This document shows, one piece after another, positions 50,362 to 64,000 of a DNA stretch of 64,000 bases. The notes beneath the pieces are model-generated. The model was not told the origin of the DNA and did not search any database. It saw nothing but the letters and a program-made list of their open reading frames with translations. A program made the position numbers and the translations under genes. Source of the DNA: an uncultured candidate division Zixibacteria bacterium. Lineage in GTDB: Bacteria; Zixibacteria; MSB-5A5; UBA10806; 4484-95. Where the stretch lies: the NCBI GenBank assembly GCA_963668625.2, contig CAXXKA010000006.1:855122-919121 (forward strand). The letters are read 5' to 3'. How positions within the stretch are numbered: the first letter of the stretch is position 1; the number at the start of each line of letters is the position of its first letter.

Positions 50362-51120
50362 ATGAACATCGCAATCCTAGTAAAGCAAACACCGCAGGTC
50401 TCAGAGGTTACAGTCTCCGATAAACCCGAATGGCCCGATGACGAGATCATTGTCAACCCGTTTGATGAGTACGCTATCGAGGAGGCCCTGCTGATTAAGG
50501 AAAAGCAAGGCGGTAAAGCCATCGCCATATCCTACGGCACCGAGGAGGCCGTCTCGGCGTTACGAGCGGCATTGGCCCTGGGTGTGGATGAGGCATACCT
50601 CATAGCCGATCCCGATTACACCTTCCTCGATCCGCAGAAAGCGGCGCAGGCGCTGGCTAAAGCAGTCGAGAAAATCGGCGATATCAACATGGTGCTTACC
50701 GGCAAGCAGGCCACTGATGACGACTCAGCCGTGACCGCGCCCTCGGTAGCGGCATATCTCGACTGGCCGCAAACAGGTTTCGTAAAGAAATTCGATTCGG
50801 TCGCCGATGACAAAGTCGTTGCCTTCCGCTCCACCGATGGCGGCTATGACAAGGTAGAGGTACCGCTTCCGGCAGTGTTCTCGGTGGTCAAGGAGATCAA
50901 CGAGCCGAGACTGCCCTCGCTTAAAGGCAAGATGAAAGCCAAGAAAGCGAAAATCGAGCAGTGGAGTCCGGCTGATCTGGGTATCGAGCTAAAACCGATG
51001 CTCAATCAGAAATCGGTATCAGCTCCGGCGCCTCGTGCGGCAGGGGAGATTCTCACCGGCGAGAAAGATGAGATAATCGATAAGCTGGTAAAGAAATTGA
51101 AAGAGGATCAGGTTATTTAA
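50362..51120 (+). CDS. etfB: Electron transfer flavoprotein beta subunit
   Basis: VKQTP, NPFDEYAIEEA, GKQATDDD, INEPRLPSLKGKMKAKK. Confidence 0.93.
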   Translation: MNIAILVKQTPQVSEVTVSDKPEWPDDEIIVNPFDEYAIEEALLIKEKQGGKAIAISYGTEEAVSALRAALALGVDEAYLIADPDYTFLDPQKAAQALAKAVEKIGDINMVLTGKQATDDDSAVTAPSVAAYLDWPQTGFVKKFDSVADDKVVAFRSTDGGYDKVEVPLPAVFSVVKEINEPRLPSLKGKMKAKKAKIEQWSPADLGIELKPMLNQKSVSAPAPRAAGEILTGEKDEIIDKLVKKLKEDQVI

Positions 51121-51145
51121 TTCTGTTGAAAATATTAAAGTTCTC

Positions 51146-51223
51146 ATGGCTGGCGGATGATCTCATCCGCCAGTTTTTGCTTGCAGGCATTCAGGTTGAG
51201 GCACGGGGACATACGCCAACCAC
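51146..51223. repeat. REPIN-like double-hairpin repeat, copy 2 (inverted); first hairpin plus T-tract may terminate the operon
   Basis: CTGGCGGATGA-TC-TCATCCGCCAG-TTTTT; homologous to 35246-35324. Confidence 0.7.
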
Positions 51224-51452
51224 GAATAAACCATAGTTTCTCAGTAAGGCTGCTCTATGAAACGATCCTACATGTTTGTATCACAATATATACATTATAC
51301 TGATAAAGTCGTTGTATTGAAGCTAATAAGTATCATTATAGAGGAATATTTTATTAGTTGTGTGATTTAAATCATCAATATAATGTTACAGAATATAATT
51401 ATTAGGACATAAGTTTCAATTAACCATTACTCCTGCGATCATCCCCAGCCCC

Positions 51453-51556
51453 ATTATTACGGAGCACCGCTTCGTAATGCCTTATGAAATTAGCAGTTAA
51501 GCGTTAATAGAAGTAGCTACGCCGGGCAGTTTCCCAAGCGGCGCTTGGGGAATAAG
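51453..51556. repeat. REP-like palindrome pair
   Basis: ATTACGGAG-CACCG-CTTCGTAAT and CCCAAGCG-G-CGCTTGGG; the latter resembles TTACCAAACAGAGTTTGGTAA at 17028. Confidence 0.5.
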
Positions 51557-51773
51557 GGGTTGATACTTGTTTAAAATTACAATGTTGTGGTTTTCTTCGC
51601 ACATGTATGTCGTTGTTTTTCTTGCACAACACTGAGTGTTATTTTTATATTCAATTATATCAATAAGTTAGATGTGTTCATATAAATAACTTGTTAATTT
51701 TTATGCTTGACAAAAAGGATGAGTGCATTTAATTGATTGTGAGTAAAAATAACATTACAAAACGGTAGTTAAA

Positions 51774-54700
51774 ATGGCCGAGATTATAAACAACCGCTAT
51801 AGCATCGTGGATGACCTGGGTCGGGGCGGCATGGGGCAAGTATACAAAGTTACGGATAATACCGACGGTTCGGTAAAAGCTTTAAAGATTCTTAAGTCCG
51901 GATTAGTCTCACAAATTGATGCATTCAAGGAAGAGTTTAAGTTACTTACGCAATTGCGTTATCCATATCTGGTTAGAGTGTATGATTTCGGCATTAATGA
52001 GGCTGGCTTGCCATATTTCACCATGGACTACCTTCTGGGTGGAGATATTCAAAGTAAAGCATCAAGTGTTAGCCTTAAGGAATATTATATCATGGCCATA
52101 AAAGCGCTTTCAGCGCTTGATTATATTCACTCGCGAAATATCATTCATGGTGATCTTAAGCCCTCTAATATTATGTTCGATGAGCTGGGAAATCTCAAAC
52201 TGGTGGATTTTGGCCTGGCCATTCATCTCCAAAGCGATAAATCCCCTAAATCATCCGGTACGCTGGAATTTGCCTCTCCTGAGGCTCTTCAGGCGCACGG
52301 GATATCCGCCCGAAGCGATTTATACAGTTTGGGGCTGGTTCTTTATGAGCTTTTATTCAATCAGCCATTTTACCGGGGCACTACCAGCGAAATGCTATCC
52401 TCGAAACTTAGCGAGCAGTTCGAGCTGCCGAGTTTTCCTGAGGAAAAAGGCGGCAGCGAATTACGTCAGGCGTTGGCTAACCTGATGCAGAACGACCCGG
52501 ACAAGCGATATCAATCGGCGGGCGAGGCAGCCAAGGTTTTCAGCGGTTTCTATTATAGTGAGGGCTCTAGTTCGGCGGCGGTTCTATCCGGAGATCATCA
52601 GAAGAGCCGGGACTATTTCGAACGGGCGGCATTCGCCGGGAGAAGCGAGGAGTATAAAAAACTCCAACTTCAATATGAGAGATTGAAAAAAGGCCGTAGC
52701 TCGGTCGTATTCATAGCCGGTGAATCGGGAGTCGGCAAAAGCCGTCTGGCCGAACAATTCAAATACGATATTCAGATGGCAGGGGATGATTTCATATTCT
52801 CGTTATGCTTGTTGGATGACAACCGGCCGCTATCCCCGATTATCGATCTTCTGAAACAAATATTCGTTAATTACGATTCGGATATGGCCAAATTCTGTAG
52901 CCTGGGTGATGAGATCAAGAAATTGTTTCCACGCAAATTCCCGGAGGTGCCCGGTGAACAGGATATCAACCGTGGCCGGCAGAGGTTATTCGATAACCTG
53001 TACAAGTATTTCAGGATGATAAACGCTAAAAAACAGTTGGTGATGCTGATCGAGGATATACAATACGCTGACAGTCTAACTCTCGATTTCCTGGATTATA
53101 TCACCAAACTTCTTAAGATAGATAATTTAGACAGCGATAAAGGCATACTGATACTGATTACCTCTCAAATCGTACCCGAATCGAAAGACTGGCAATTCAT
53201 AGAATCGTCCGAACAAATCGTGCTGGAACCGGCCAATCAGGAGTTGTGGGATAATTATATCCAAAGTTTGTTCGGCGATTTCATCCCTCCGACTGATTTT
53301 TCCGGAAAATTATTCGAAGAGACCGGCGGCAATTTCTTTTTTGCCGAGGAGCTTCTTAAAAACCTGGCCGATGGTGGCGCATTGATTCGCACCGAGGGCT
53401 ACTGGCGTTTGAAGCCTGATATGCTGGCGGAGCTGCCGATTCCGCAATCGGTGCAGGAGGCTATCGAAAGGCGGCTTTCCCGTCTGCGCATACAACATCA
53501 GTTGATAGTGGAGCAGGCGGCCGTAATCGGTACGGTTTTGTATCCTGATGATTTACTGGCGCTCGCCGGTTATTCCGATGAGGCCTTGAAACTTCTGGAT
53601 GAGTTGGTGGCATTGCGCGTATTCCGTCGCTTTAAAGGCTTTTTTAGTTTTCTACACAATCAGGTTAAAGAGGTCGTTTATAATAATCTCGATAAAAACA
53701 AAGCCATACTTTTACATAAAAAGACCGCCCGTTATTTCGAGGCCAAAGGAGCCGAACCTGACTATCTGGCGATGCAATATTTAGCCGCCGGCGAAAAAAC
53801 GAGCGCGGTTACGTATTTCATGCAAGCCGGTAAAAACGCCGGGGATGTTTTCGGCTGGGAGCAAAGCTCGAATTTCTACGCCAGAGCTCTGGATATCATT
53901 CAATCTTGGGAGCAGGCCCCCGAATCGGCCGGATTTAAGGCGCTATTGGGGCAAAGCCGGGCCTTGATGTATATCGATCCCAAAAAAGCAGAAACCTCGC
54001 TTGAGATGGCTCTAAACGAGGTGGATAAAACCGATAATCCCAATCGCAGCCTGGTTACGGTGCTTATCAAACAGGGCGAGAACAGCCAGCATCTGGGGGA
54101 TAACGAAAAAGCGCTACATCACTACGATAAGGCCATGGCTATCGAAAATGAAGAGCGGGCCAATGACCAGTGGCCCGATCTTCTGGGACAGGCGCTACTG
54201 GGCAAGGGCTGGACTTTGAGCAAATTAGGTAATTTCGATGACGCGAGTAAGCAATATTACCGGGCGCTCGATTATTTCGTTGAGGACCCGGAGAAAATGT
54301 GTCGGGTGCTGGGCAATCTCGGTATCGTCTACCTGAGGAAAAACGATCTTGATGGTGGGCTTGACTATTTCAACAGATCTTTGAAAGTCTGCCAGGAATA
54401 CGACTATAAATGGCCGGCTATGCAGCTTTACGGCAATATAGGCAATGTCTATAATGCCAGGAGCGAATACAATCAGGCGCTCGAATATTACGCCAAATCG
54501 CTGGAAATAGCGCTGGCAATATCCGACCGCCGCATCGAGGCGATTAATTTACTTAATATAGGCAACGCTTATAACCACCTGGGAAAACCTACCGAGGCGT
54601 TAACGAATTTCGAGAAAGCCCTGAAAATCCAGAAAGCTATCGGTGATCGCGGTAGCGAGGCTATTACATATAATAATTTATCCGAAACCTATCTTATTTT

Positions 54701-56972
54701 GGGGATGTTCCGCAAAGCTTATAATTTCGCCAAGAACGGCCTGGATATGGCTACGACCATCAAGGAGCCGAGAATTCAATTGGCCAACCGTCGGGCATTA
54801 GCTGATATCTACCTGGCTATAGGCGATCTGGCTAAAGCCTCTACCGAAATCGAGAGAGCTATCAACCAGGCAGGCGAGCTAAAGGATGAATCGCAGCGAT
54901 TATGGGCGGTGGCTATCCTGGCTGAGATTCTGGTTAATCAAAGGCGATTCGAGGATGCTGAAAAGCTTATCGATACTGCCCTGGCTGATGAGATAGATGA
55001 TTCGGGTTTGAGAGGTCGGTTGTTGATGGTCAGGGCCGAGATGATGATCTATACAGGAGATAGCGAGACCGGCCGGGGGACACTCGAGGAACTGGCTTCG
55101 TTCGATCAACCGTTATCGCAGAAATCGGTTTATCATTATTTGAATTCGCTGTGGCTATATACGTTTTCCGAGGCCAGGGCCGATTTGCTGGAGGCTGAAT
55201 CGGAGGTTGAGCTGGCTATGAAATTATCCGATAAATACGGGCCATCCGGGGACAAACCCAGAGCTCTATTGCTACTGGAGAAGATCAAAACCAGGCTGGG
55301 CGAACGTCACGAAAATTACACCGAGAAAGCTATCAATCTGGCTATAGGTTTTTGCGCCGGACTACCCGAAAGCAGCCAGAAAATGTATCTGGCCAAATTT
55401 AAATCGTATAATAAAAATGATATAGAGGAGAATAACATGGAGAAATCAACCAAAGAGAAGGGTTTTGAGATACTCTTCGAGGTTGCAAAATCGATAAATT
55501 CAATCCTGGAACTCGATCCGCTTTTGAACCGCGTTATGGATTTGATGCTGGAGAACATGAAAGCCGAGCGCGGATTCATTATGTTAAAAGACGCCGAGGG
55601 GAATTTAGAACCCACAGTTGCCAGGAATATCGATAAGGAGACGATCCTAGAAGAGAGTTCGATTTCTCATTCGACCATAAATGATGTTTTCTCCTCGAGC
55701 AAGCCATTGCTTTTTAATCATACTCCGGGCGAGAACCAGGACAGAGAATCTGTTATTGATTTTCAGATAACCAGTATAATCTGCGCTCCCCTGACTGTTA
55801 ATGAACAGGCTATAGGTATAGTATATATCGATAGCCGGGCGACAAACCACGTGTTTAACGGGGAGGATCTCGAGTTCCTGGAGAGTTTCTGTAACCTGGC
55901 GGCAATAGCAATCGAGAACGCTTATGTAGCTGATTCCCTTACCGATCGAAATGTATACCTTCAAAAACAGGTGGAGAAAAGCTCCAGCTTCCAGAATATT
56001 ATCGGGCGGTCCTCGCCGATGCAGAAAGTGTTTCGCATGGCCGAATCGGTGGCCAACACCGATGCCACTGTCGTGATCACCGGCGAGTCGGGAACCGGCA
56101 AGGAGATTTTAGCCAAAGCGATACATTTCGCCAGCCAGCGCAAGAAAGCCAAGTTTATCCCGGTTGATTGCGGCGCGCTGCCCGAATCGCTCCTCGAATC
56201 GGAGTTGTTCGGACATAAGAAAGGTTCATTCACCGGCGCTATTTCCGATAGAATAGGGCTTTTCGATGAGGCAAACGGAGGCACTATATTTTTAGATGAG
56301 ATAACCAATACCAGTCAGAATTTCCAGGTAAAACTACTGCGAGTGATACAGGAGGGTGAGTTCAGGCGGGTAGGGGATGTTAAATCGCGGCGAGTAAACG
56401 TCAGGATTATTGCAGCCACGAATAAAAAACTGGAGAATGAGGTAAAAGAGGGTAATTTCCGGGAGGACTTGTATTACAGGATTAATGTGGTCAATCTCTT
56501 GCTGCCGGCTCTGAGGGATCGTAAGGAGGATATTCCTATTCTGGCCAACTATTTCCTGGAAGTTATTTGTGAGAAAATGAATATCGCAAGAAAGAGTATC
56601 AGCAATAAGGCTATCGATTACCTGGTTAATTTCAGATGGCCGGGGAATGTCAGGCAGCTTGAAAACGCAATTGAGCGCATGGTAATATTTTCGGAGGGAG
56701 CCCAGGTTGAGGTGGCCGATCTGCCGCAGGAGATAAAGTCGATGTTCGATGGAATGTCGACCGACAATAAAACCCAGGTCAGTGTGCCTAAAACTAAAGT
56801 AGAGCTGAAAGCCGCCAAAGCTCAGCTTGACAGGATGTTTCTGGTTGGAGTAATGGAGATGGCAGAGGGGAATGTGATGAAAGCGGCGCGTATATCAGGT
56901 ATGGATCGCACCCAACTTCACCACATGTTCAATAAATATAGTATCAATACGACTAATTTCAGGAAGAAATAG
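51774..56972 (+). CDS. Ser/Thr kinase-STAND-like NTPase-TPR-GAF-sigma54 activator (AAA+, Fis HTH) fusion
   Basis: GRGGMG, HGDLKPSN, DFG; GESGVGKS and IEDIQYAD; TPR array; GAF; GESGTGKE, ESELFGHKKGSFTGA, FLDEI, FREDLYYR, WPGNVRQLEN; GNVMKAAR HTH. Confidence 0.92.
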   Translation: MAEIINNRYSIVDDLGRGGMGQVYKVTDNTDGSVKALKILKSGLVSQIDAFKEEFKLLTQLRYPYLVRVYDFGINEAGLPYFTMDYLLGGDIQSKASSVSLKEYYIMAIKALSALDYIHSRNIIHGDLKPSNIMFDELGNLKLVDFGLAIHLQSDKSPKSSGTLEFASPEALQAHGISARSDLYSLGLVLYELLFNQPFYRGTTSEMLSSKLSEQFELPSFPEEKGGSELRQALANLMQNDPDKRYQSAGEAAKVFSGFYYSEGSSSAAVLSGDHQKSRDYFERAAFAGRSEEYKKLQLQYERLKKGRSSVVFIAGESGVGKSRLAEQFKYDIQMAGDDFIFSLCLLDDNRPLSPIIDLLKQIFVNYDSDMAKFCSLGDEIKKLFPRKFPEVPGEQDINRGRQRLFDNLYKYFRMINAKKQLVMLIEDIQYADSLTLDFLDYITKLLKIDNLDSDKGILILITSQIVPESKDWQFIESSEQIVLEPANQELWDNYIQSLFGDFIPPTDFSGKLFEETGGNFFFAEELLKNLADGGALIRTEGYWRLKPDMLAELPIPQSVQEAIERRLSRLRIQHQLIVEQAAVIGTVLYPDDLLALAGYSDEALKLLDELVALRVFRRFKGFFSFLHNQVKEVVYNNLDKNKAILLHKKTARYFEAKGAEPDYLAMQYLAAGEKTSAVTYFMQAGKNAGDVFGWEQSSNFYARALDIIQSWEQAPESAGFKALLGQSRALMYIDPKKAETSLEMALNEVDKTDNPNRSLVTVLIKQGENSQHLGDNEKALHHYDKAMAIENEERANDQWPDLLGQALLGKGWTLSKLGNFDDASKQYYRALDYFVEDPEKMCRVLGNLGIVYLRKNDLDGGLDYFNRSLKVCQEYDYKWPAMQLYGNIGNVYNARSEYNQALEYYAKSLEIALAISDRRIEAINLLNIGNAYNHLGKPTEALTNFEKALKIQKAIGDRGSEAITYNNLSETYLILGMFRKAYNFAKNGLDMATTIKEPRIQLANRRALADIYLAIGDLAKASTEIERAINQAGELKDESQRLWAVAILAEILVNQRRFEDAEKLIDTALADEIDDSGLRGRLLMVRAEMMIYTGDSETGRGTLEELASFDQPLSQKSVYHYLNSLWLYTFSEARADLLEAESEVELAMKLSDKYGPSGDKPRALLLLEKIKTRLGERHENYTEKAINLAIGFCAGLPESSQKMYLAKFKSYNKNDIEENNMEKSTKEKGFEILFEVAKSINSILELDPLLNRVMDLMLENMKAERGFIMLKDAEGNLEPTVARNIDKETILEESSISHSTINDVFSSSKPLLFNHTPGENQDRESVIDFQITSIICAPLTVNEQAIGIVYIDSRATNHVFNGEDLEFLESFCNLAAIAIENAYVADSLTDRNVYLQKQVEKSSSFQNIIGRSSPMQKVFRMAESVANTDATVVITGESGTGKEILAKAIHFASQRKKAKFIPVDCGALPESLLESELFGHKKGSFTGAISDRIGLFDEANGGTIFLDEITNTSQNFQVKLLRVIQEGEFRRVGDVKSRRVNVRIIAATNKKLENEVKEGNFREDLYYRINVVNLLLPALRDRKEDIPILANYFLEVICEKMNIARKSISNKAIDYLVNFRWPGNVRQLENAIERMVIFSEGAQVEVADLPQEIKSMFDGMSTDNKTQVSVPKTKVELKAAKAQLDRMFLVGVMEMAEGNVMKAARISGMDRTQLHHMFNKYSINTTNFRKK

Positions 56973-56985
56973 AGACCTGTTTTTG

Positions 56986-57138
56986 AGGATTGTAAAAATG
57001 TCTGTTGCACGAACAGCCGGGTGGGTTGAGTTTTCTGCTCATCTTTTTCCGGCGACTAATTGCAAAAACACAGATAGCGGCAAAGGATGGATAAAGAATT
57101 TCGTTTCCCGACACCTGAGACTGCTTTTTCAGCAGCCT
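56986..57138. mobile_element. MITE-like element (degenerate)
   Basis: AGGATTGTAAAAATG...CTTTTTCAGCAGCCT ends; internal homology to 17134-17204 and 16271-16285. Confidence 0.5.
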
Positions 57139-57262
57139 TTTGTGGTGGGAGGTAGTCAAATGATTTCTAACATGTTATTATCGAGGCGATAATGGAATTG
57201 AAACAAATGAAAGATTTTTCTTGTTTTTTATAGTGATTACTATATATTTATAGCGGTGTTTT

Positions 57263-59113
57263 ATGGGTAATAGTATAAAAATAATAACTCTGATTCTTTT
57301 ATTAAGCATGTCAGCTTTAGCCAGCAATCAGGGCATGATAAAAGGAACCGTGTTCAATGCTGACGGCGTTCCGTTGTCTAATTCCAAGATAGTATTCTAC
57401 TCGGCGGAAATGGAAGCGGTCGATTCGGTCATCACCGATGTTACCGGTGTGTTTTCTATCTCTCTTGAATCGGATAAGTATTATATCTCCGCCTCAGCTT
57501 TTAACTATACCCGTATGCTTTACCCGAATGTTTATCAATTCCACAATGCTTCCCTTGTCGAGTTGTTCGCCGGTCAGATTAAAGAGATCAGTTTTAATCT
57601 GATTCGCGGTGGAATTATCTGCGGTCAGATTTATACATATAACGAAGAGCAGGAAGCGTTCCTCGTAACAGCGATCAAGGTAAGTTCACCGTATGCCGGC
57701 TGGCAGAACTCTCAGGAATATATCATAAGCTCTCACGGTGATTATTGCCTCGATGGTTTATTGCCTGGTTATTATAAAGTTCTAGTGAACGGCCAGGATT
57801 ATAGTTCGGAATATTTTCCTGGTGTTGGCAATATTGATGAGGCCGATCTGGTGGATGTTGAGCAGGGCTCGATTGCCAATAACGTTAGTTTCAATATGGA
57901 GCAACCGAATGTTGGGATTGTCAGGGGAATAGTGACAAGCAACGATCGTTCTTATCTGGTGGAGCATGCCAAGGTAATCGCTTATCAACAGCGGCTGCCC
58001 GAGTTGGACCCTTACAAGGTCACTACTTTCACTAACAGCAGTGGCGAATACAGATTCGAATTGTTGGGTGGCTATTATTATATATGCGCAATGATTGGAC
58101 CGGGTTGTGTTGGTGATGAGAGAATTGAGCTTTATTATAACGACAAATTCAGCAGTGAGTTTGCTACGCCGGTTCGAGTAAATCCCAACGGTGATGTAAC
58201 AGGGATTGACTTTGAATTCGATTTATCCAAAGATTACGGTTTGAAAATTTATGGCGCATTAAACAACAATCTCTCCGGTTTACCTATAAGCGGCGCTAAA
58301 CTAGCGGCTGTCGACTATTATACCGGCGAGGCTATCAGTATCGCATATAGCCGTTACAATGGCGAATTCGAAATCGAAAATCTTGTCTCCGGGACATATA
58401 TAATAGAGATTACCGGGCCGGGTATAGTACCATCATTTTGGCCGGATGTTTACAGTTGGCGACAGGCCGAAACTATCGAACTCAGTAACTCTAATTATAT
58501 AGTGTATAATGGTGGCGCGATCACTCAGGACTACGGCACTCCTGAATATGAAATCTCGGGTGTGGTTCGCGGTGATGGTCAGTTTCTGGAGAATACCAGA
58601 GTATATGCGACCAATACCGAAGATAACACGATTGTTTATAGCGCCACGAATTCGTTTGGTTATTATAACTTATCATCGGGGCTTCATTCGGGCGAGTATA
58701 AGTTATATGCCGATAAATACGGTTGGAACGGCTCGTATTATTCATCTAATATTGTCCTTGATTCGATAGCCTCTTATGAGGATATCAATTTTGAACTAAA
58801 TATGATTACGCTGAGCATCGATGAAACGGAAATAACTTTACCTGAACAGGTAGGTTTAATTGGGAATTATCCCAATCCATTCAATGCCAGCACTACGATA
58901 ATTATGTCATTTGATGAATCTCTCAATTCGCAGTTGGAGATTTACAATCTGACAGGACAACTGGTGAACTCTATACCATTCAAAGCGCAACCGGGGATCA
59001 ACACAATAATGTGGAATGGAGTCGCGGCAAACGGCAAAAACGTCTCCAGTGGTATATATTTATATAAAGTGCAAAGTCTTCCTGTTGTTAAAAAGATGGT
59101 ATTAGTAAAATAG
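57263..59113 (+). CDS. Secreted protein with carboxypeptidase-regulatory-like/Ig repeats and T9SS/FlgD-Ig-type C-terminal domain
   Basis: Signal peptide; repeated G.I.G.V...(Y/F)YP....A..V units; NYPNPFNASTTI...IYNLTGQLV...WNG...VSSGIY...KMVLVK. Confidence 0.85.
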   Translation: MGNSIKIITLILLLSMSALASNQGMIKGTVFNADGVPLSNSKIVFYSAEMEAVDSVITDVTGVFSISLESDKYYISASAFNYTRMLYPNVYQFHNASLVELFAGQIKEISFNLIRGGIICGQIYTYNEEQEAFLVTAIKVSSPYAGWQNSQEYIISSHGDYCLDGLLPGYYKVLVNGQDYSSEYFPGVGNIDEADLVDVEQGSIANNVSFNMEQPNVGIVRGIVTSNDRSYLVEHAKVIAYQQRLPELDPYKVTTFTNSSGEYRFELLGGYYYICAMIGPGCVGDERIELYYNDKFSSEFATPVRVNPNGDVTGIDFEFDLSKDYGLKIYGALNNNLSGLPISGAKLAAVDYYTGEAISIAYSRYNGEFEIENLVSGTYIIEITGPGIVPSFWPDVYSWRQAETIELSNSNYIVYNGGAITQDYGTPEYEISGVVRGDGQFLENTRVYATNTEDNTIVYSATNSFGYYNLSSGLHSGEYKLYADKYGWNGSYYSSNIVLDSIASYEDINFELNMITLSIDETEITLPEQVGLIGNYPNPFNASTTIIMSFDESLNSQLEIYNLTGQLVNSIPFKAQPGINTIMWNGVAANGKNVSSGIYLYKVQSLPVVKKMVLVK

Positions 59114-59368
59114 TTGATAATTTGCTGTAAGATTTCTTACATTAAGCAAATATTTAATTATGGGAAGATAAACAAGGGTAATATTATTACTAATTTGACA
59201 ACAGGGATTTGCATAGGCTATGAAGGTTTTTGCGCAAGCGGAACATTGAAGTACCAGTCCAATATAGATAATCTCTACGTTAAATAGTTGTGATTTACAA
59301 GTTGTTAACATGCAATACTTTAAGGGAAACATCGAGGATGGCATCAAGGTTTTGCTTAGTATGACTTA

Positions 59369-59384
59369 GGGCATGTATTTTGCT
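59369..59384 (+). promoter_or_regulatory. Sigma54 -24/-12 promoter
   Basis: GGGCATGTATTTTGCT matches GGCAYG-N4-TTGCW with GG-N10-GC spacing. Confidence 0.6.
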
Positions 59385-59411
59385 GAATTTGATTAGATAG
59401 TTGTTTGACAA

Positions 59412-60203
59412 ATGAATAAGATATTGTATGTCGATGATTATGGTCATCCTGGCGTAATAAACATGGCCATCGATGACCTTCTGGGAAAAAGAGAGATTCT
59501 ATCGGATTACGATTTCATCCTGAGAACTTATTTCTGGCACAAATCCACCTTGAGTTGCGGCTACCATCAGAAACCGGAAAAGCGCATTAATTTTGATGGC
59601 TGTAAATTGCATAATGTTGAGGTTGTCCGGCGTCCAACCGGTGGCCGGGAGCTTCTGCATGACGGTGATATGAGTTTCAGTATTACCGGCAAGCTGAGAG
59701 ATTCATCTGGCAAGGCAGAAGTGGGCGCAAAAGATTATTTCGTTAAAGCGGCCGGAGTAATTGTTGGTGGTTTGAGGGAGATCGGCATAAATGCCGAGGT
59801 AACCTCTGGAAATAAGAAATCAGCCGAACATGGCTCGGCGCCCTGTTTGGCGGCCATCTCGCAATACGAGATAGTATGCGAGGGCAGGAAGATTGTACCG
59901 ATGGCGCAACGTGTTTATCCTGAGGCAGTGATGGTACATGGCTCGATTCCGATTATTAGATCGAAAATCCCGACGGCTGAATTGATTGTAAACGGAAAAA
60001 ATAGCAGGCTGCAAAAGATAATCGAGGAATCATCGACGGATTTAGAGCGAGAATTAGAATCAGAATTTGATCTTGAGCGATTAAAATTCGGAATAAAAAG
60101 AGTCTTTGAGGGTAATTTCAGTGGCAAGGCTGAAATTGCCGGGATTTCGGATAGAGTACTTGAATTAGCGAATAATGAGAAAGCCAAGTGGAAAATACAA
60201 TAA
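59412..60203 (+). CDS. Lipoate-protein ligase/octanoyltransferase (LplA/LipM family) catalytic domain
   Basis: NMAIDD.L, LRTY.W..TLSCGY.Q, VVRRPTGG..LLHD, GRKIV..AQ, HGSI. Confidence 0.82.
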   Translation: MNKILYVDDYGHPGVINMAIDDLLGKREILSDYDFILRTYFWHKSTLSCGYHQKPEKRINFDGCKLHNVEVVRRPTGGRELLHDGDMSFSITGKLRDSSGKAEVGAKDYFVKAAGVIVGGLREIGINAEVTSGNKKSAEHGSAPCLAAISQYEIVCEGRKIVPMAQRVYPEAVMVHGSIPIIRSKIPTAELIVNGKNSRLQKIIEESSTDLERELESEFDLERLKFGIKRVFEGNFSGKAEIAGISDRVLELANNEKAKWKIQ

Positions 60204-60306
60204 AATTAAGTAACAACAAGTCATTTTTATTATGGGCTTCTAGGGAGGTGATACTTGAGTCTTTGTTTTACGGTTTGTAGGTTTTTTAACTTTTAAGGAG
60301 TAAGAT

Positions 60307-62076
60307 ATGGTGAAAAGGTTTTTATTTTTAACATTGATCGTGTCATTGTTAGTGGCCGGCAGTGCTTTTGCGGAACTGTCAAAGACAGCACCTATGGTTA
60401 ATCACAAGCAGATAAAAGGTGATGAGATCATAAATGTGGAAAACGCAATTCCATACACCCCTGGTTTGGCCACTGAGTCACCGGGCGAAATCGTTGGTTA
60501 TACTTATTACGATTATCAGAGCAATGGTTCCAGCGGTAATCGTGTTGAAGTTTTTGAGAACGGCAACAAATACTTTGCTTTCATGAAACTATTCGGCTGG
60601 CCTTATCCGCCGGCTCCCCGTCACGTTTACCATAACTGGGTTGATTCTGATGGCGTCTTTTACTACAATGACGAGGGTAGTCAGGTAAGTGAGAATAGTG
60701 GCGCAGGCTACACCAATATGGATATCTATGATGGTAACCGTGCCGCTATCTTCTATCATAATGGTGACAACAACTATGTCTCTATAGAGGATGAACCCCT
60801 GGGTTTAGGTTTCTTCACTCAATACCAGATTCCTAATGAATTATATCCCCAAACAACTCCCAGCCCGGGCCTCTGTGCCTGGCCTTATGGTGCGATAGAT
60901 GGCCAAAACTTCATTCATGTGGTTGCTTCAGAAAACACAGATAGCCGTCTTCAAAGGATGGGTTACACCCGCTCAGAAGATGGTGGCTCAACCTGGTCGG
61001 ATTTCGTGCTGGTTGATACTGTAATGGTAATAGGTACGACTATAGCCTCCTCGCCGGTCTCCAATCGTGTTGTAATAGCCTATCCAAAAACTACTGATAC
61101 TACAACCCAGTGGTATAACGATATTTGTTACTACGCTTCTGACGACGGTACTACTTGGAACTGGCGCTATGGCCGTAACAATGTGACCAACTACGGCACC
61201 GACAACGATTCGCTCTGGGCCTATACCGATCTAGATGTGTTGATCGACTATAACGACGATATCCAGCTCTTATGGAATGCTCAATGGGTGACCGATGAAG
61301 GTATCTACTACAAAACGTTCATGGAGCACTGGAGTGAGGCTACCGATCAGATCACCACTATCCAGGATTTCCCGGATTCGTTGTGGGGTGATATCTCCGG
61401 CGCATGGAATCGTTCGATGTGTAAGATGAGCCTGGGCACGAGAGAGTCCGATAAAGCCCTGTTCGCGACCTGGACTCAGTTTGACACCTCTGATGTCTCC
61501 GTCGGTGGTTTCGCTAATGGCGAGATTTACGCAACCGGTAGCCTTGACGGCGGTTTAAACTGGAAAGATCCGATCAATATAACCAATTCGCATACTCCTG
61601 ATTGTTACCCGGGTGAGTGCGACAGTGATCACTGGTCGAGCCTGGCTGAGGTCGTGGATGATGATATTCACGTACTCTACACCAACGATAAGGATGCCGG
61701 CGGTATTCCTCAGGAAGAGGGTGCAGCTACTGAGAATCCGATGAAATATCTAACTTACATGGCTGATTCCTTGCTGCCTCCCACATCTGTTGGTGAAATC
61801 GATAACCTGCCGACTAATTTCGCCTTAAACCAGAACTACCCCAACCCGTTCAACGCCACCACCACTATCTCGTTCAGTTTGAAAACCGATGGTGACGTGA
61901 CTGTCGATATCTATGATATCACGGGCGCCAAGGTTACTACTCTGGTTAACGGTAGCTTAGCTGCCGGCGAACATCATGTTAACTGGAATGCCTCAGATGT
62001 CGCCTCCGGCGTTTACTATTACAAACTTACCGCCGATGGCGTTTCCGAGACCAAGCAGGCTATGTTGATCAAATAA
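60307..62076 (+). CDS. Secreted BNR/Asp-box (beta-propeller-like) protein with T9SS/FlgD-type C-terminal domain
   Basis: Signal peptide, SEDGGSTW, SDDGTTW, SLDGGLNW Asp boxes; LNQNYPNPFNATT...ASGVYYYKL; strong SD TAAGGAG. Confidence 0.85.
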   Translation: MVKRFLFLTLIVSLLVAGSAFAELSKTAPMVNHKQIKGDEIINVENAIPYTPGLATESPGEIVGYTYYDYQSNGSSGNRVEVFENGNKYFAFMKLFGWPYPPAPRHVYHNWVDSDGVFYYNDEGSQVSENSGAGYTNMDIYDGNRAAIFYHNGDNNYVSIEDEPLGLGFFTQYQIPNELYPQTTPSPGLCAWPYGAIDGQNFIHVVASENTDSRLQRMGYTRSEDGGSTWSDFVLVDTVMVIGTTIASSPVSNRVVIAYPKTTDTTTQWYNDICYYASDDGTTWNWRYGRNNVTNYGTDNDSLWAYTDLDVLIDYNDDIQLLWNAQWVTDEGIYYKTFMEHWSEATDQITTIQDFPDSLWGDISGAWNRSMCKMSLGTRESDKALFATWTQFDTSDVSVGGFANGEIYATGSLDGGLNWKDPINITNSHTPDCYPGECDSDHWSSLAEVVDDDIHVLYTNDKDAGGIPQEEGAATENPMKYLTYMADSLLPPTSVGEIDNLPTNFALNQNYPNPFNATTTISFSLKTDGDVTVDIYDITGAKVTTLVNGSLAAGEHHVNWNASDVASGVYYYKLTADGVSETKQAMLIK

Positions 62077-62098
62077 AAAATACATTGCCTCAGATATT

Positions 62099-62130
62099 AA
62101 AGCGGTCGATTATTCGACCGCTTTTTTATT
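62099..62130 (+). terminator. Intrinsic terminator
   Basis: AAAGCGGTCGA-TTAT-TCGACCGCTTT-TTT. Confidence 0.85.
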
Positions 62131-62441
62131 TATCTCCGTTTATCCGACACTTGTACAGTTAAGTATAGTATGCATCGTGCTCGGCTAGAGAAACTATCAC
62201 TATTTTATTGTTACAAAATGTTTTAAGTAAGAGCAGTTTTATTTTACATAGTCATAAATAGCAACAAAAATAGCTTGACTTTCTAGAGCTCAATAAACAA
62301 ATTGTAGGGAATATTTTTGGGGCTTGTTTGTATTTAATTTAGCTAGATACTGTTAGAAGATGCGGGAGTGGATGAATTACAACGCAAATCCTGGGTTGAA
62401 AATGAGATTATAATTAATATACCAAGTTAGGAGGTTGAGGT

Positions 62442-64000
62442 ATGAAGTTGCTAAGGTTTTCCGGTGTTGTCATTCTTTTGGCAATAACATTATGCTATCA
62501 GATGGCTTTAGCCGGAACAACCGGTAAAATAACCGGCGAGGTGTTGGATAGAGAAAACAATCAGCCGGTTATTGGTGCTCGAGTTCAGATCGATGGTACC
62601 ACCATGGGCGCTATGGCGAATCCCATGGACGGATCTTATATCATTCAGAACATTCCGCCAGGTACCTACACGATAGTAGCATCATGTATCGGTTACAATT
62701 CTATGACTGTTACGAATTTAGTTGTTCATGTCGATGTGACGACCGAGCAGAATTTTACTATGGTATCTCAAGCTATTGAGATCGATTCTGTTGTGGTTAT
62801 CGCAGAGGTAAAAGAAATCGATAAATATGAAACGAGTGGCGTCGATCGTATCGGCGCACGCGAGATTAAAGCTCTTCCCGTGACGAATATCCAGGGAATC
62901 GTAAAGATGCAAACCGGGTTTCGTTTCTCATGGTGGCGCTTTACACGTTCGTGGTTCTCGTGCCGGCGAGCTTGGATTCGTCGATGACGGCGTTTTGATT
63001 CGCGATAACCTGGGTGGTTATGGCGAAACGAATGTCAGTGGCAACGAATCAACGCCGATCTCGAGGCTTTCCATGAATGTTTCCTCGTCTGATATCGAGG
63101 ATGTCTCGATCATGAAAGGCAACTACTCGGCCGAATACGGCAACGTTTCGGGCGGTCTGGTGACCCACACAGCGTAAAGAAGGCAGCAACAAGACTACGC
63201 GAGTAAATCTCGAATTTTTAACTGATGATTTCGGTTTCCCTGAGCTCAATGATTATTCCAATAATATGGATCATTATTTCATGAGCTTGAGCGGGCCGGT
63301 TCCGTTACTCTCCGAAAGATTATTCCCCGCTTTGAGTTTGAAATGGCCGGGCGAGAAAATGTCGTACTACACGAGTTTCTCGGTTGACCAGGAGGATACA
63401 TACGTTGACCTACAACGATTATCCCTCGGCCAAATCTCAAATCGATTATGGAACAGAAGAGTTCCTGGGTATGACAATCCCCAAGAAGAGGGTTAATAAG
63501 TATGCGGGATTCGCCAAGCTGACATGGAAGCTCGATTCGAATTCGCGTTACAAACTAAATTTCCGTTATTCGAAAGAATGGAGCGATGCGCGTAATTTCA
63601 CTTTCGCATATCTTTATTCTCCTCAAACAGCTACTATAATCGAATCGTCTACTGAAATTAATTCGGTCAGATTCTCGTTCAATCCGCCATTCTTGAAAGA
63701 CACATTCGGTGAGCTGATGTTCAGTGAAGTTACCCAGACTTACGAACGCAAGCCCGGCGGTTTAACGCCTTCCGATTTTTACGTCCCGGTTGAAGGTTTT
63801 CGAAAGCTACACTGATGCTAATAACAACGGACAATGGGATGCCGCTGAAAGTTTCGAGGATCTCAACGGCGATGGTGTTTGGGGCGAACCTTACACCGAT
63901 GACAATAGGAATGGCATGTGGGATAGCGGTGAGCCTTTCGCCGATCTCAATAATAACGGCGAATGGGACCCCGAACCTTTCGTGGATAGTAACAGTAATG
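62442..64000 (+). pseudogene. TonB-dependent receptor with N-terminal carboxypeptidase-like domain; four +1 frameshifts (sequencing error or pseudogene); truncated at window edge
   Basis: AGTTGKITG.V.D..., plug HVRGSRAGE, GNYSAEYGNVSGGLV; joining frames at about 62917, 63165, 63405 and 63799 gives a continuous protein. Confidence 0.8.

Follow-up and report, generated by a model that had tools for sequence, protein, structure and literature searches.

Which genes does a sigma-54 activator control when it carries a protein kinase, a STAND NTPase and a TPR array in front of its activator domain, and through which DNA sites does it act? The question is raised by a regulator gene near the end of a 64,000-nt stretch of DNA from an uncultured candidate division Zixibacteria bacterium (GenBank assembly GCA_963668625.2, contig CAXXKA010000006.1; G000:C6:855122-919121 in our numbering). 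This whole stretch is referred to below as the window, and its end coincides with the contig end. A first-pass annotation, made from the sequence alone, had proposed that the sensor-like regulator is wired directly to transcription of a secreted and outer-membrane module downstream, which includes a lipoate-ligase-like gene, here called Lpl. Our comparative analysis suggests a narrower arrangement: the regulator probably activates a promoter at 59369-59384 through an enhancer at 59209-59234, forming a cognate pair with it, and also a promoter at 476 kb of contig C1 of the same genome. The features concerned, which include a protein with the C-terminal sorting domain (CTD) of the type IX secretion system (T9SS), are as follows.

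51774..56972, + strand: regulator gene, encoding a sigma-54 enhancer-binding protein of 1732 aa (P0001), identified as an open reading frame (ORF) with Pfam domains
59209..59234, + strand: candidate enhancer (upstream activating sequence), TTGCA-N16-TTGCG with central TATGAA, 160 nt upstream of the -24 element
59369..59384, + strand: sigma-54-type -24/-12 element GGGCAT-GTATT-TTGCT (GGGCATGTATTTTGCT), with GG at 59370-71 and GC at 59382-83
59400..59411, + strand: conserved leader GTTGTTTGACAA abutting the Lpl start codon, kept across orthologous loci, with no Shine-Dalgarno sequence
59412..60203, + strand: Lpl, a divergent LplA/LipB-superfamily protein of 263 aa (LplA-B_cat, E 8.1e-23), predicted first gene of the sigma-54 unit
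60307..62076, + strand: CTD2, a 589-aa predicted beta-propeller with a T9SS C-terminal sorting domain (Por_Secre_tail), predicted second gene of the sigma-54 unit
62099..62124, + strand: predicted intrinsic terminator closing the Lpl-CTD2 unit, an 11-pair stem followed by a T-run

The regulator frame is open along its full length. It had been read as a single polypeptide joining a Hanks kinase, a STAND module, TPRs, GAF, a sigma-54 AAA+ domain with a GSFTGA loop and a Fis-type helix-turn-helix (HTH), with domain search and structure prediction suggested as checks. Pfam and the invariance of motifs in homologues bear this out, and all the named domains were found.

51798-52514, + strand: non-RD Hanks kinase domain (Pkinase, residues 9-247; Pfam E 7.9e-45)
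52590-54053, + strand: STAND nucleotide-binding oligomerization domain (NOD), modelled part, with AAA_16 at 52632-53114 (residues 287-447; E 8.3e-24)
~54201-55094, + strand: TPR array (residues ~810-1107; TPR_12/TPR_MalT)
55512-55913, + strand: GAF domain (residues 1247-1380; Pfam E 5.8e-17)
55998-56744, + strand: sigma-54 AAA+ domain with its lid (Sigma54_activat, PF00158, residues 1409-1575, E 4.6e-75, 251 bits; AAA_lid_14, residues 1581-1657)
56823-56921, + strand: Fis-type HTH (HTH_8, 24.3 bits against a cut-off of 22, E 2.7e-5, the cut-off being passed in a scan confined to the last 80 residues)

Motifs were aligned in 48 full-length homologues (>1690 residues), picked from 120 listed matches (P0001-P0052). 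In all 48, the kinase retains the Gly-rich loop, the VAIK Lys, the alpha-C Glu, the catalytic Asp and Asn, DFG and APE, and its catalytic loop reads HGD, the non-RD form, with an invariant Gly; the domain is thus an active-looking non-RD Ser/Thr kinase. Equally invariant are Walker A (GxxGxGKS) and Walker B (ED) of the STAND module, GESGTGKE, FLDE and the arginine-finger motif REDLYYR of the AAA+ domain, and the HTH recognition helix SGMDR[ST]Q[LI]HH, whose invariance fits a conserved DNA site. The GAFTGA-type loop, GSFTGA in the window, varies as G[A29/S19]FTGA across the 48 homologues. Among solved structures, residues 5-255 match PknB (3f61, E 1.2e-30) and residues 1232-1724 align to the whole length of NifA (9qq6, E 8.6e-85). 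A sequence search of the PDB with the NOD gave no match; a model of it (mean pLDDT 89.4), covering residues 273-760 and based on 18 orthologs, has as its best Foldseek matches the STAND proteins PH0952, Apaf-1 (TMq 0.52), MalT, CED-4 and Avs3. The regulator has the sequence and fold features that define bacterial enhancer-binding proteins (bEBPs), Hanks kinases and STAND NTPases.

This architecture is far from private to the window. A word-indexed search returned 1030 proteins with E<=0.001 to the regulator, and among the 120 matches listed most cover ~100% of the query with the same length and domain list; the named ones belong to candidate division Zixibacteria, at 38-70% identity, and to Acidobacteriota, Planctomycetes and "Edwardsbacteria", at ~28-30%. 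The first-pass annotation knew of no characterised system of this kind and mentioned similar fusions in annotations. The first part stands, as we found no paper on the fusion; the second understates the case, given at least 1030 homologues. Abstracts on bEBPs with kinase, STAND or TPR modules yielded nothing on a kinase-STAND-sigma-54 fusion, a term search of two surveys of prokaryotic kinase architectures returned no mention of sigma-54, and the literature search found no paper combining Zixibacteria with sigma-54; what was seen of the literature on sigma-54 with type IX secretion held nothing relevant. Pkinase-AAA_16-TPR-GAF-Sigma54_activat-HTH_8 is an abundant database family for which no studied member was found.

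Within its own genome (4.3 Mb; 3245 crude ORFs, with gene calls spanning 85.8% and ~14% intergenic), the regulator is single copy and one of 18 strong bEBP genes. The proposal would have fallen with a genome lacking rpoN; the gene is present (Sigma54_DBD, 199 bits). For comparison we used 60 relatives of the same class, in which 16 families are sampled (families are labelled f1, f2, f3 and so on, and two genera g2 and g9). A full-length ortholog occurs in 9/9 f1 and 14/14 f2 genomes, and none was found at E<=1e-100 in the other families.

Promoters were sought with the consensus TGGCAC-N5-TTGCW, in which GG and GC were fixed and up to three mismatches allowed. On the + strand of 51000-64000, GGGCATGTATTTTGCT is the only intergenic GG-N10-GC match; it ends 27 nt before the Lpl start and carries two mismatches. 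Genome-wide, the six perfect matches are all intergenic and lie 22-52 nt before a gene, and the organism thus appears to use canonical sigma-54 promoters; matches with one mismatch are intergenic in 11/42 cases and those with two in 49/397. The match at 59369-59384 is therefore not significant by itself in this genome, and its significance comes from conservation. Lpl homologues were located in 51 loci of relatives and the 250 nt upstream of each were scanned, with the window included in the f1 counts.

f1: -24/-12 element before Lpl in 8/10 loci, 39-54 nt to the start codon
f2: -24/-12 element before Lpl in 9/12 loci, 39-54 nt to the start codon
f3: -24/-12 element before Lpl in 2/2 loci, 138 nt to the start codon
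other families: -24/-12 element in 1/27 loci, with three mismatches and non-positional, 227 nt to the start

GG-N10-GC with TTGC is kept at a set distance in 17/22 f1 and f2 loci, in intergenic sequence that is otherwise not alignable; within the loci examined, the distant families have no consistent -24/-12 element. The conserved element comes with a candidate enhancer. In f1 this is TTGCA-N16-nTGC with a central TGTGAA or TATGAA, 150-165 nt upstream of the -24 element, and in f2 it is TGCA-N6-TGCA, sometimes tripled. The respective forms are found in 8/8 and 9/9 of the promoter-bearing loci (17/17 together) and in 0/5 promoter-less f1/f2 loci (g2 and g9), 0/2 loci of f3 and 0/27 of other families; in f3, a related TTGCA...TGTGTAA element was seen by eye ~205 nt upstream. 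Promoter and enhancer thus occur together in 17/22 orthologous f1/f2 loci, versus 0/27 loci of families without the regulator. The promoter that the first-pass annotation placed ahead of the lipoate-ligase-like gene is supported by this joint conservation and not by the quality of its match. A nearby TGGCAT...TTGC at 59339-59355 was rejected as the promoter, having a gap of 12 nt instead of 10 and no conservation. The leader before the Lpl start, (T)TGTTGTTTGACAA in f1 and ACTTTGACAA in f2, takes the place of a Shine-Dalgarno sequence, and loci whose sigma-54 promoter has been replaced retain it as well. Related TTCTTTG(A/G)nAA motifs are seen in f3 and f4.

The same combination of sites points to a second candidate target elsewhere in the genome. 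A composite pattern, TGCA-N5-T[AG]TG[AT]A-N5-nTGC, searched on both strands, has only two copies in 4.3 Mb, at 59210 of the window and at C1:476168; both are intergenic, with a -24/-12-like site 159 and 180 nt downstream, respectively.

C1:476168-476363: second candidate target, enhancer plus promoter, the -24/-12 element being AGGCACATTGTTTGCT with one mismatch

It precedes the gene of a 581-aa CTD protein, a predicted T9SS cargo for which a PDB sequence search matched the CTD alone, followed by the gene of an S8 peptidase, also with a CTD. AGGCAT-N5-TTGC[TA] is kept in 8/17 ortholog loci (L097-L113, several of which end at contig ends), the keepers being the own genome, G001, G006, G009, G004, G012, G015 and G016, and elements like TGTGAA-N5-TTGCG were seen by eye upstream of the kept promoters. 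In genus g2 (L103, L104), sigma-70-like hexamers are present at this locus, without a sigma-54 promoter.

Two weaker candidates came from relaxed patterns. A looser enhancer pattern with a one-mismatch site lies before the gene of a 279-aa CTD protein at C10:246272. At G000:C6:422274-422529 on the - strand (L095:3274-3529), TGGCATATATATTGCC stands 154 nt after a TATGAA-N5-TTGC element; ~110 nt past it, between an array of CTD2 paralogues and uvrC, is a strong Shine-Dalgarno sequence with a 34-aa hydrophobic ORF. This locus is a possible third, tiny target. As a separate observation, three CTD-protein genes in a row at G000:C1:473860-481273 (L089), the last encoding an S8 subtilase, each lie behind a -24/-12-like site with one or two mismatches. 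A general role of sigma-54 in driving CTD proteins of the genome was also considered and set aside as weakly supported: CTD proteins account for 8/41 site-gene pairs, versus 220/3245 ORFs overall, and for 0/6 perfect sites.

How closely is the regulator tied to these sites? Regulator, CTD1 (a further CTD protein gene, described below), Lpl and CTD2 stand side by side in the window, in 10/17 of the loci first compared, and in G015, G018 and G023. The synteny expected by the first-pass annotation therefore holds in many relatives; it does not in at least five. Likewise, downstream genes and sigma-54 sites, whose absence from homologues would have spoken against the proposal, are kept in most f1/f2 loci, and the site is missing in g2 and g9.

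More distant relatives add a second line of evidence. Upstream of Lpl in 40 further loci stand fabF-rnc-(ETF-beta) or, in nine loci, a sigma-54 activator of 975-996 aa with the order TPR_MalT-GAF-Sigma54_activat-HTH_8 and without kinase or STAND module. We calculated a quick maximum-likelihood tree from 56 rows of the AAA+-HTH region: the 18 bEBPs of the own genome, 14 Zixibacteria-type homologues, nine distant full-length homologues hand-picked from the listed matches, six other enhancer-binding proteins (EBPs; short or large ones of other families) and the nine Lpl-adjacent proteins. The regulator, the 14, the nine distant homologues and the nine Lpl-adjacent proteins form one clade (SH-aLRT 95), which excludes all 17 other bEBPs of the genome and the short EBPs of f3, f11 and f12. 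An EBP of this subfamily beside Lpl is therefore recurrent across the class. The Lpl-adjacent EBPs differ from the regulator in their HTH, and no canonical -24/-12 element was found near them in the distant loci examined.

Of the alternatives, the one that survives best is that promoter and enhancer are real but are served by one of the 17 other bEBPs, the regulator being a historical neighbour that controls other genes. Several observations favour this over a cognate pair. With so many activators in the genome, adjacency is no proof of pairing; in at least five genomes (G005, G010, G011, G013 and G017) CTD1-Lpl-CTD2 keeps its promoter and enhancer apart from the regulator, in G013 at a distance of ~0.8 Mb. 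The regulator persists (intact in G007 at least) in genera g2 and g9, which have neither promoter nor enhancer before Lpl, and g2 also lacks the second-target promoter; other targets or outputs of the regulator must therefore exist. Family f3 has the promoter but, in place of a full-length ortholog, only a short GAF-AAA+-HTH protein with a different HTH that falls outside the regulator clade. Moreover, the regulator and CTD1 sit inside a housekeeping order, fabF-rnc-ETFbeta-Lpl, and some of the synteny may thus have historical reasons. Against service by another bEBP, promoter and enhancer are confined to the regulator-bearing families, plus f3; lineages with shared TGCA half-sites have an invariant HTH; and same-clade EBPs recur directly before Lpl in nine distant loci, whereas no other bEBP of the genome belongs to that clade. 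On balance we consider this alternative unlikely, and we infer that the enhancer is bound by the regulator rather than by another bEBP.

We see still less room for the second alternative, in which the -24/-12 match does not work and Lpl-CTD2 is read from a sigma-70-type promoter or by read-through from CTD1, as apparently happens in g2 and g9. That the site belongs to the two-mismatch class, which is not enriched in intergenic DNA (49/397 versus ~14%), counts against a sigma-54 promoter, and there is no strong terminator after CTD1. Sigma-70-like hexamers replace the Lpl promoter and enhancer in g2 (L037, L051) and in g9 (L044, L047, L057), the latter read by eye with a 15-nt spacer. However, the match is kept at a fixed distance in 17/22 f1/f2 loci amid non-alignable surroundings and is always paired there with an upstream repeat element, and the same pairing recurs at the second locus. 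Finally, it is improbable that phosphorylation by the kinase domain is the main output and the sigma-54 module secondary or reserved for distant genes: the kinase residues are invariant and genera in which both candidate promoters were lost still have the regulator, but the AAA+ Walker motifs, GAFTGA-type loop, arginine fingers and HTH are just as invariant, and short relatives with neither kinase nor STAND are found at the same genomic position.

If the regulator does activate these promoters, its mode of action may be pictured as follows. A cytoplasmic signal would be read by the TPR and/or GAF modules, and the response would be gated by nucleotide exchange in the STAND module, perhaps also by autophosphorylation. 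Assembly of the AAA+ ring would then be permitted, the invariant HTH would bind TGCA-repeat enhancers ~160 nt upstream of -24/-12 promoters, and ATP hydrolysis would open the sigma-54 holoenzyme complex. The output would be Lpl and a T9SS-secreted beta-propeller and, from the second target, a T9SS cargo gene followed by an S8 peptidase gene.

The extent of the unit can be read from its flanks, which add the following features.

57221..57248, + strand: candidate sigma-70-type promoter of CTD1, TTGTTT-N16-TATATT, a pattern conserved in orthologous loci
57263..59113, + strand: CTD1, a predicted surface or secreted protein of 616 aa with three CarboxypepD_reg (beta-sandwich-like) domains and Por_Secre_tail (T9SS sorting domain)
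62442..64000, + strand: 5' part of a TonB-dependent receptor gene, with a CarboxypepD_reg N-terminus, which runs off the contig; its ortholog carries Plug and barrel

Before CTD1, CTD2 and the TonB receptor, no -24/-12 element with up to three mismatches is present in the window. An A-tract with TTGnnn-N16-18-TAnnnT precedes CTD1 by 42-97 nt in the window and 9/10 loci. The predicted sigma-54 unit consists of Lpl and CTD2 and is ended by the terminator at 62099-62124. In this respect the first-pass annotation needs trimming: its gene content, two CTD-bearing secreted proteins, a lipoate-ligase-like gene and a TonB receptor on the same strand, is confirmed by Pfam and by the receptor ortholog in G001, and the proposed wiring to a secreted and outer-membrane module fits the Lpl-CTD2 unit and the second CTD target; CTD1, with its sigma-70-type promoter, and the receptor, behind a terminator, fall outside it.

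Both CTD proteins pass the TIGR04183 cut-off of 23 (38.9 and 43.4 bits). The genome encodes SprA and PorU homologues above their cut-offs and ~220 CTD proteins among its crude ORFs, and export of CTD proteins by the T9SS is therefore plausible. CTD2 belongs to a multi-copy family, with six matches in the genome, including a tandem array at C6:422986-430947. A PDB sequence search with CTD2 found nothing, and Atlas look-ups yielded none but unnamed clusters. Its model (25 homologues; pLDDT 79.2, pTM 0.74) is a beta-propeller whose fold matches are rhamnose-glucuronate lyase 7esn (TMq 0.44/TMt 0.56), pseudaminidase, sialidases, propeller lectins and CylK, which suggests a carbohydrate-binding or -processing role and allows no catalytic assignment.

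As printed, the receptor gene falls into five or more frame pieces. Independent contigs from two runs of the same sample, X1 and X2 (depth 2.9 and 4.2), lack one base at 62916, 63164, 63409 and 63797, the positions of the frame breaks; the breaks are therefore assembly insertion errors near the contig end and not the mark of a pseudogene. A fifth single-base insertion is at 62404, and all five lie no more than 1.6 kb from the contig end. The ortholog in G001 is intact, with 1144 aa, CarboxypepD_reg, Plug (29.5 bits) and a TonB_dep_Rec barrel (78.2 bits). In the receptor ortholog at L032:1005-4439 (- strand), a long Asp/Asn/Gly-rich insert with repeats like DxNGNG and NGDGxWD separates plug and barrel.

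What the unit might do depends largely on Lpl. The protein matches PF21948 (LplA-B_cat) with 81.9 bits against a cut-off of 27, fails the LplA equivalog TIGR00545 (41.7 bits against 280, residues 6-133 aligned) and reaches no NCBIfam equivalog cut-off. In 34 homologues the invariant residues are RRxTGGR (R74, T76, G77 and G78), His83, Pro144-Cys145, Glu153 and Lys160. With LplA, LipM and LipL, the PF21948 enzymes, Lpl shares the catalytic-domain fold, RRxTGGR, the His and the Lys, while scoring far below the equivalog cut-offs. Its invariant Cys145, 15 residues before Lys160, recalls by motif the acyl-enzyme Cys150 of Bacillus subtilis LipL, which is described as essential (bioRxiv 10.1101/419234). 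Since the genome has a LipB (170 bits against 83.55) and LipA, besides GcvH and an E2, a housekeeping lipoyl transferase role for Lpl was set aside and the protein is best regarded as an extra, divergent paralogue, a putative LplA/LipL-like acyl (lipoyl or octanoyl) transferase. Lpl is single copy in 58/61 genomes of the class, and the 73 relatives found by a word-indexed search are labelled Zixibacteria or unnamed.

In 40/40 further Lpl loci, the same-strand downstream gene encodes a CTD2-family protein (f1-f4) or a CarboxypepD_reg TonB receptor (other families); a receptor follows the propeller CTD genes in the window, G001, G002 and G022. One could imagine a salvage route for an acyl cofactor, lipoate or a related compound, in which the propellers free it, the receptor imports it and Lpl attaches it, all commanded by the kinase-STAND sensor through sigma-54, but we give this scheme little credence. 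A literature search found nothing relevant on lipoate with TonB-dependent uptake.

The remaining surroundings of the locus have one further mapped feature.

51148..51175, + strand: predicted intrinsic terminator after the ETF-beta gene, a 12-pair stem followed by a T-run, which sets fabF, rnc and ETF-beta apart from the regulator gene

The genes upstream of the regulator are fabF, rnc, one unknown gene, a YtfJ-like gene and ETF-beta. No ETF-alpha gene follows ETF-beta (50362-51120), which is succeeded by a terminator and then by 650 nt of non-coding DNA; the corresponding gap is ~180 nt in most orthologous loci. An Rfam scan of 50900-64000 returned no family at gathering scores. Elsewhere in the genome, another bEBP, at G000:C8:656713-665403 on the - strand (part of it L094), is a ~2900-aa frame in which Sigma54_activat is preceded by no fewer than 11 PAS-type stretches and by two or three GAF domains. 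At G000:C8:185727-186869, a 1.1-kb segment that seems to be non-coding contains four copies of a 26-nt palindrome (TTGCATCATTGGCCATCAGCCATGCA and close variants), spaced 290, 536 and 290 nt apart.

What is new at this locus is the set of in-silico predictions: enhancer, promoter, regulon, natural promoter swaps and the linkage of Lpl to a receptor. With a 26-bp enhancer, a -24/-12 element, a two-gene target and a second genomic target, and with the promoter swaps of sister genera as natural controls, it offers a compact test bed. For a phylum without a cultured model, it suggests that T9SS cargo may be under sigma-54 control, and it exposes a class-wide link of a lipoate-ligase-like enzyme with a TonB-dependent receptor.

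Among known regulators, the closest likeness of the C-terminal part is to NifA-type bEBPs, with which the regulator shares GAF, a sigma-54 AAA+ domain with a GAFTGA-type loop, a Fis-type HTH and an enhancer ~160 nt from the -24/-12 element. Unlike NifA, it has 1230 extra N-terminal residues, which hold the kinase, the STAND NOD and the TPRs; the NifA site is TGT-N10-ACA and NifA controls nif genes, whereas the predicted enhancers here consist of TGCA repeats and the predicted targets are T9SS cargo and an LplA-like gene. With MalT (8bob) and PH0952 (6mfv), the regulator shares the P-loop NOD, its Walker A and B motifs being invariant, and the MalT-like TPR sensor that comes after it, yet its output is a sigma-54 AAA+ activator and not the LuxR or SARP DNA-binding domain of STAND regulators. 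A Hanks kinase fused in front of a STAND part recalls PknK, and AfsR is a comparable case. Receiver, GAF, PAS or V4R domains are the usual control modules of sigma-54 activators; here a STAND switch and a eukaryote-like kinase front the activator, which leaves two oligomerising NTPases to be coordinated in one chain.

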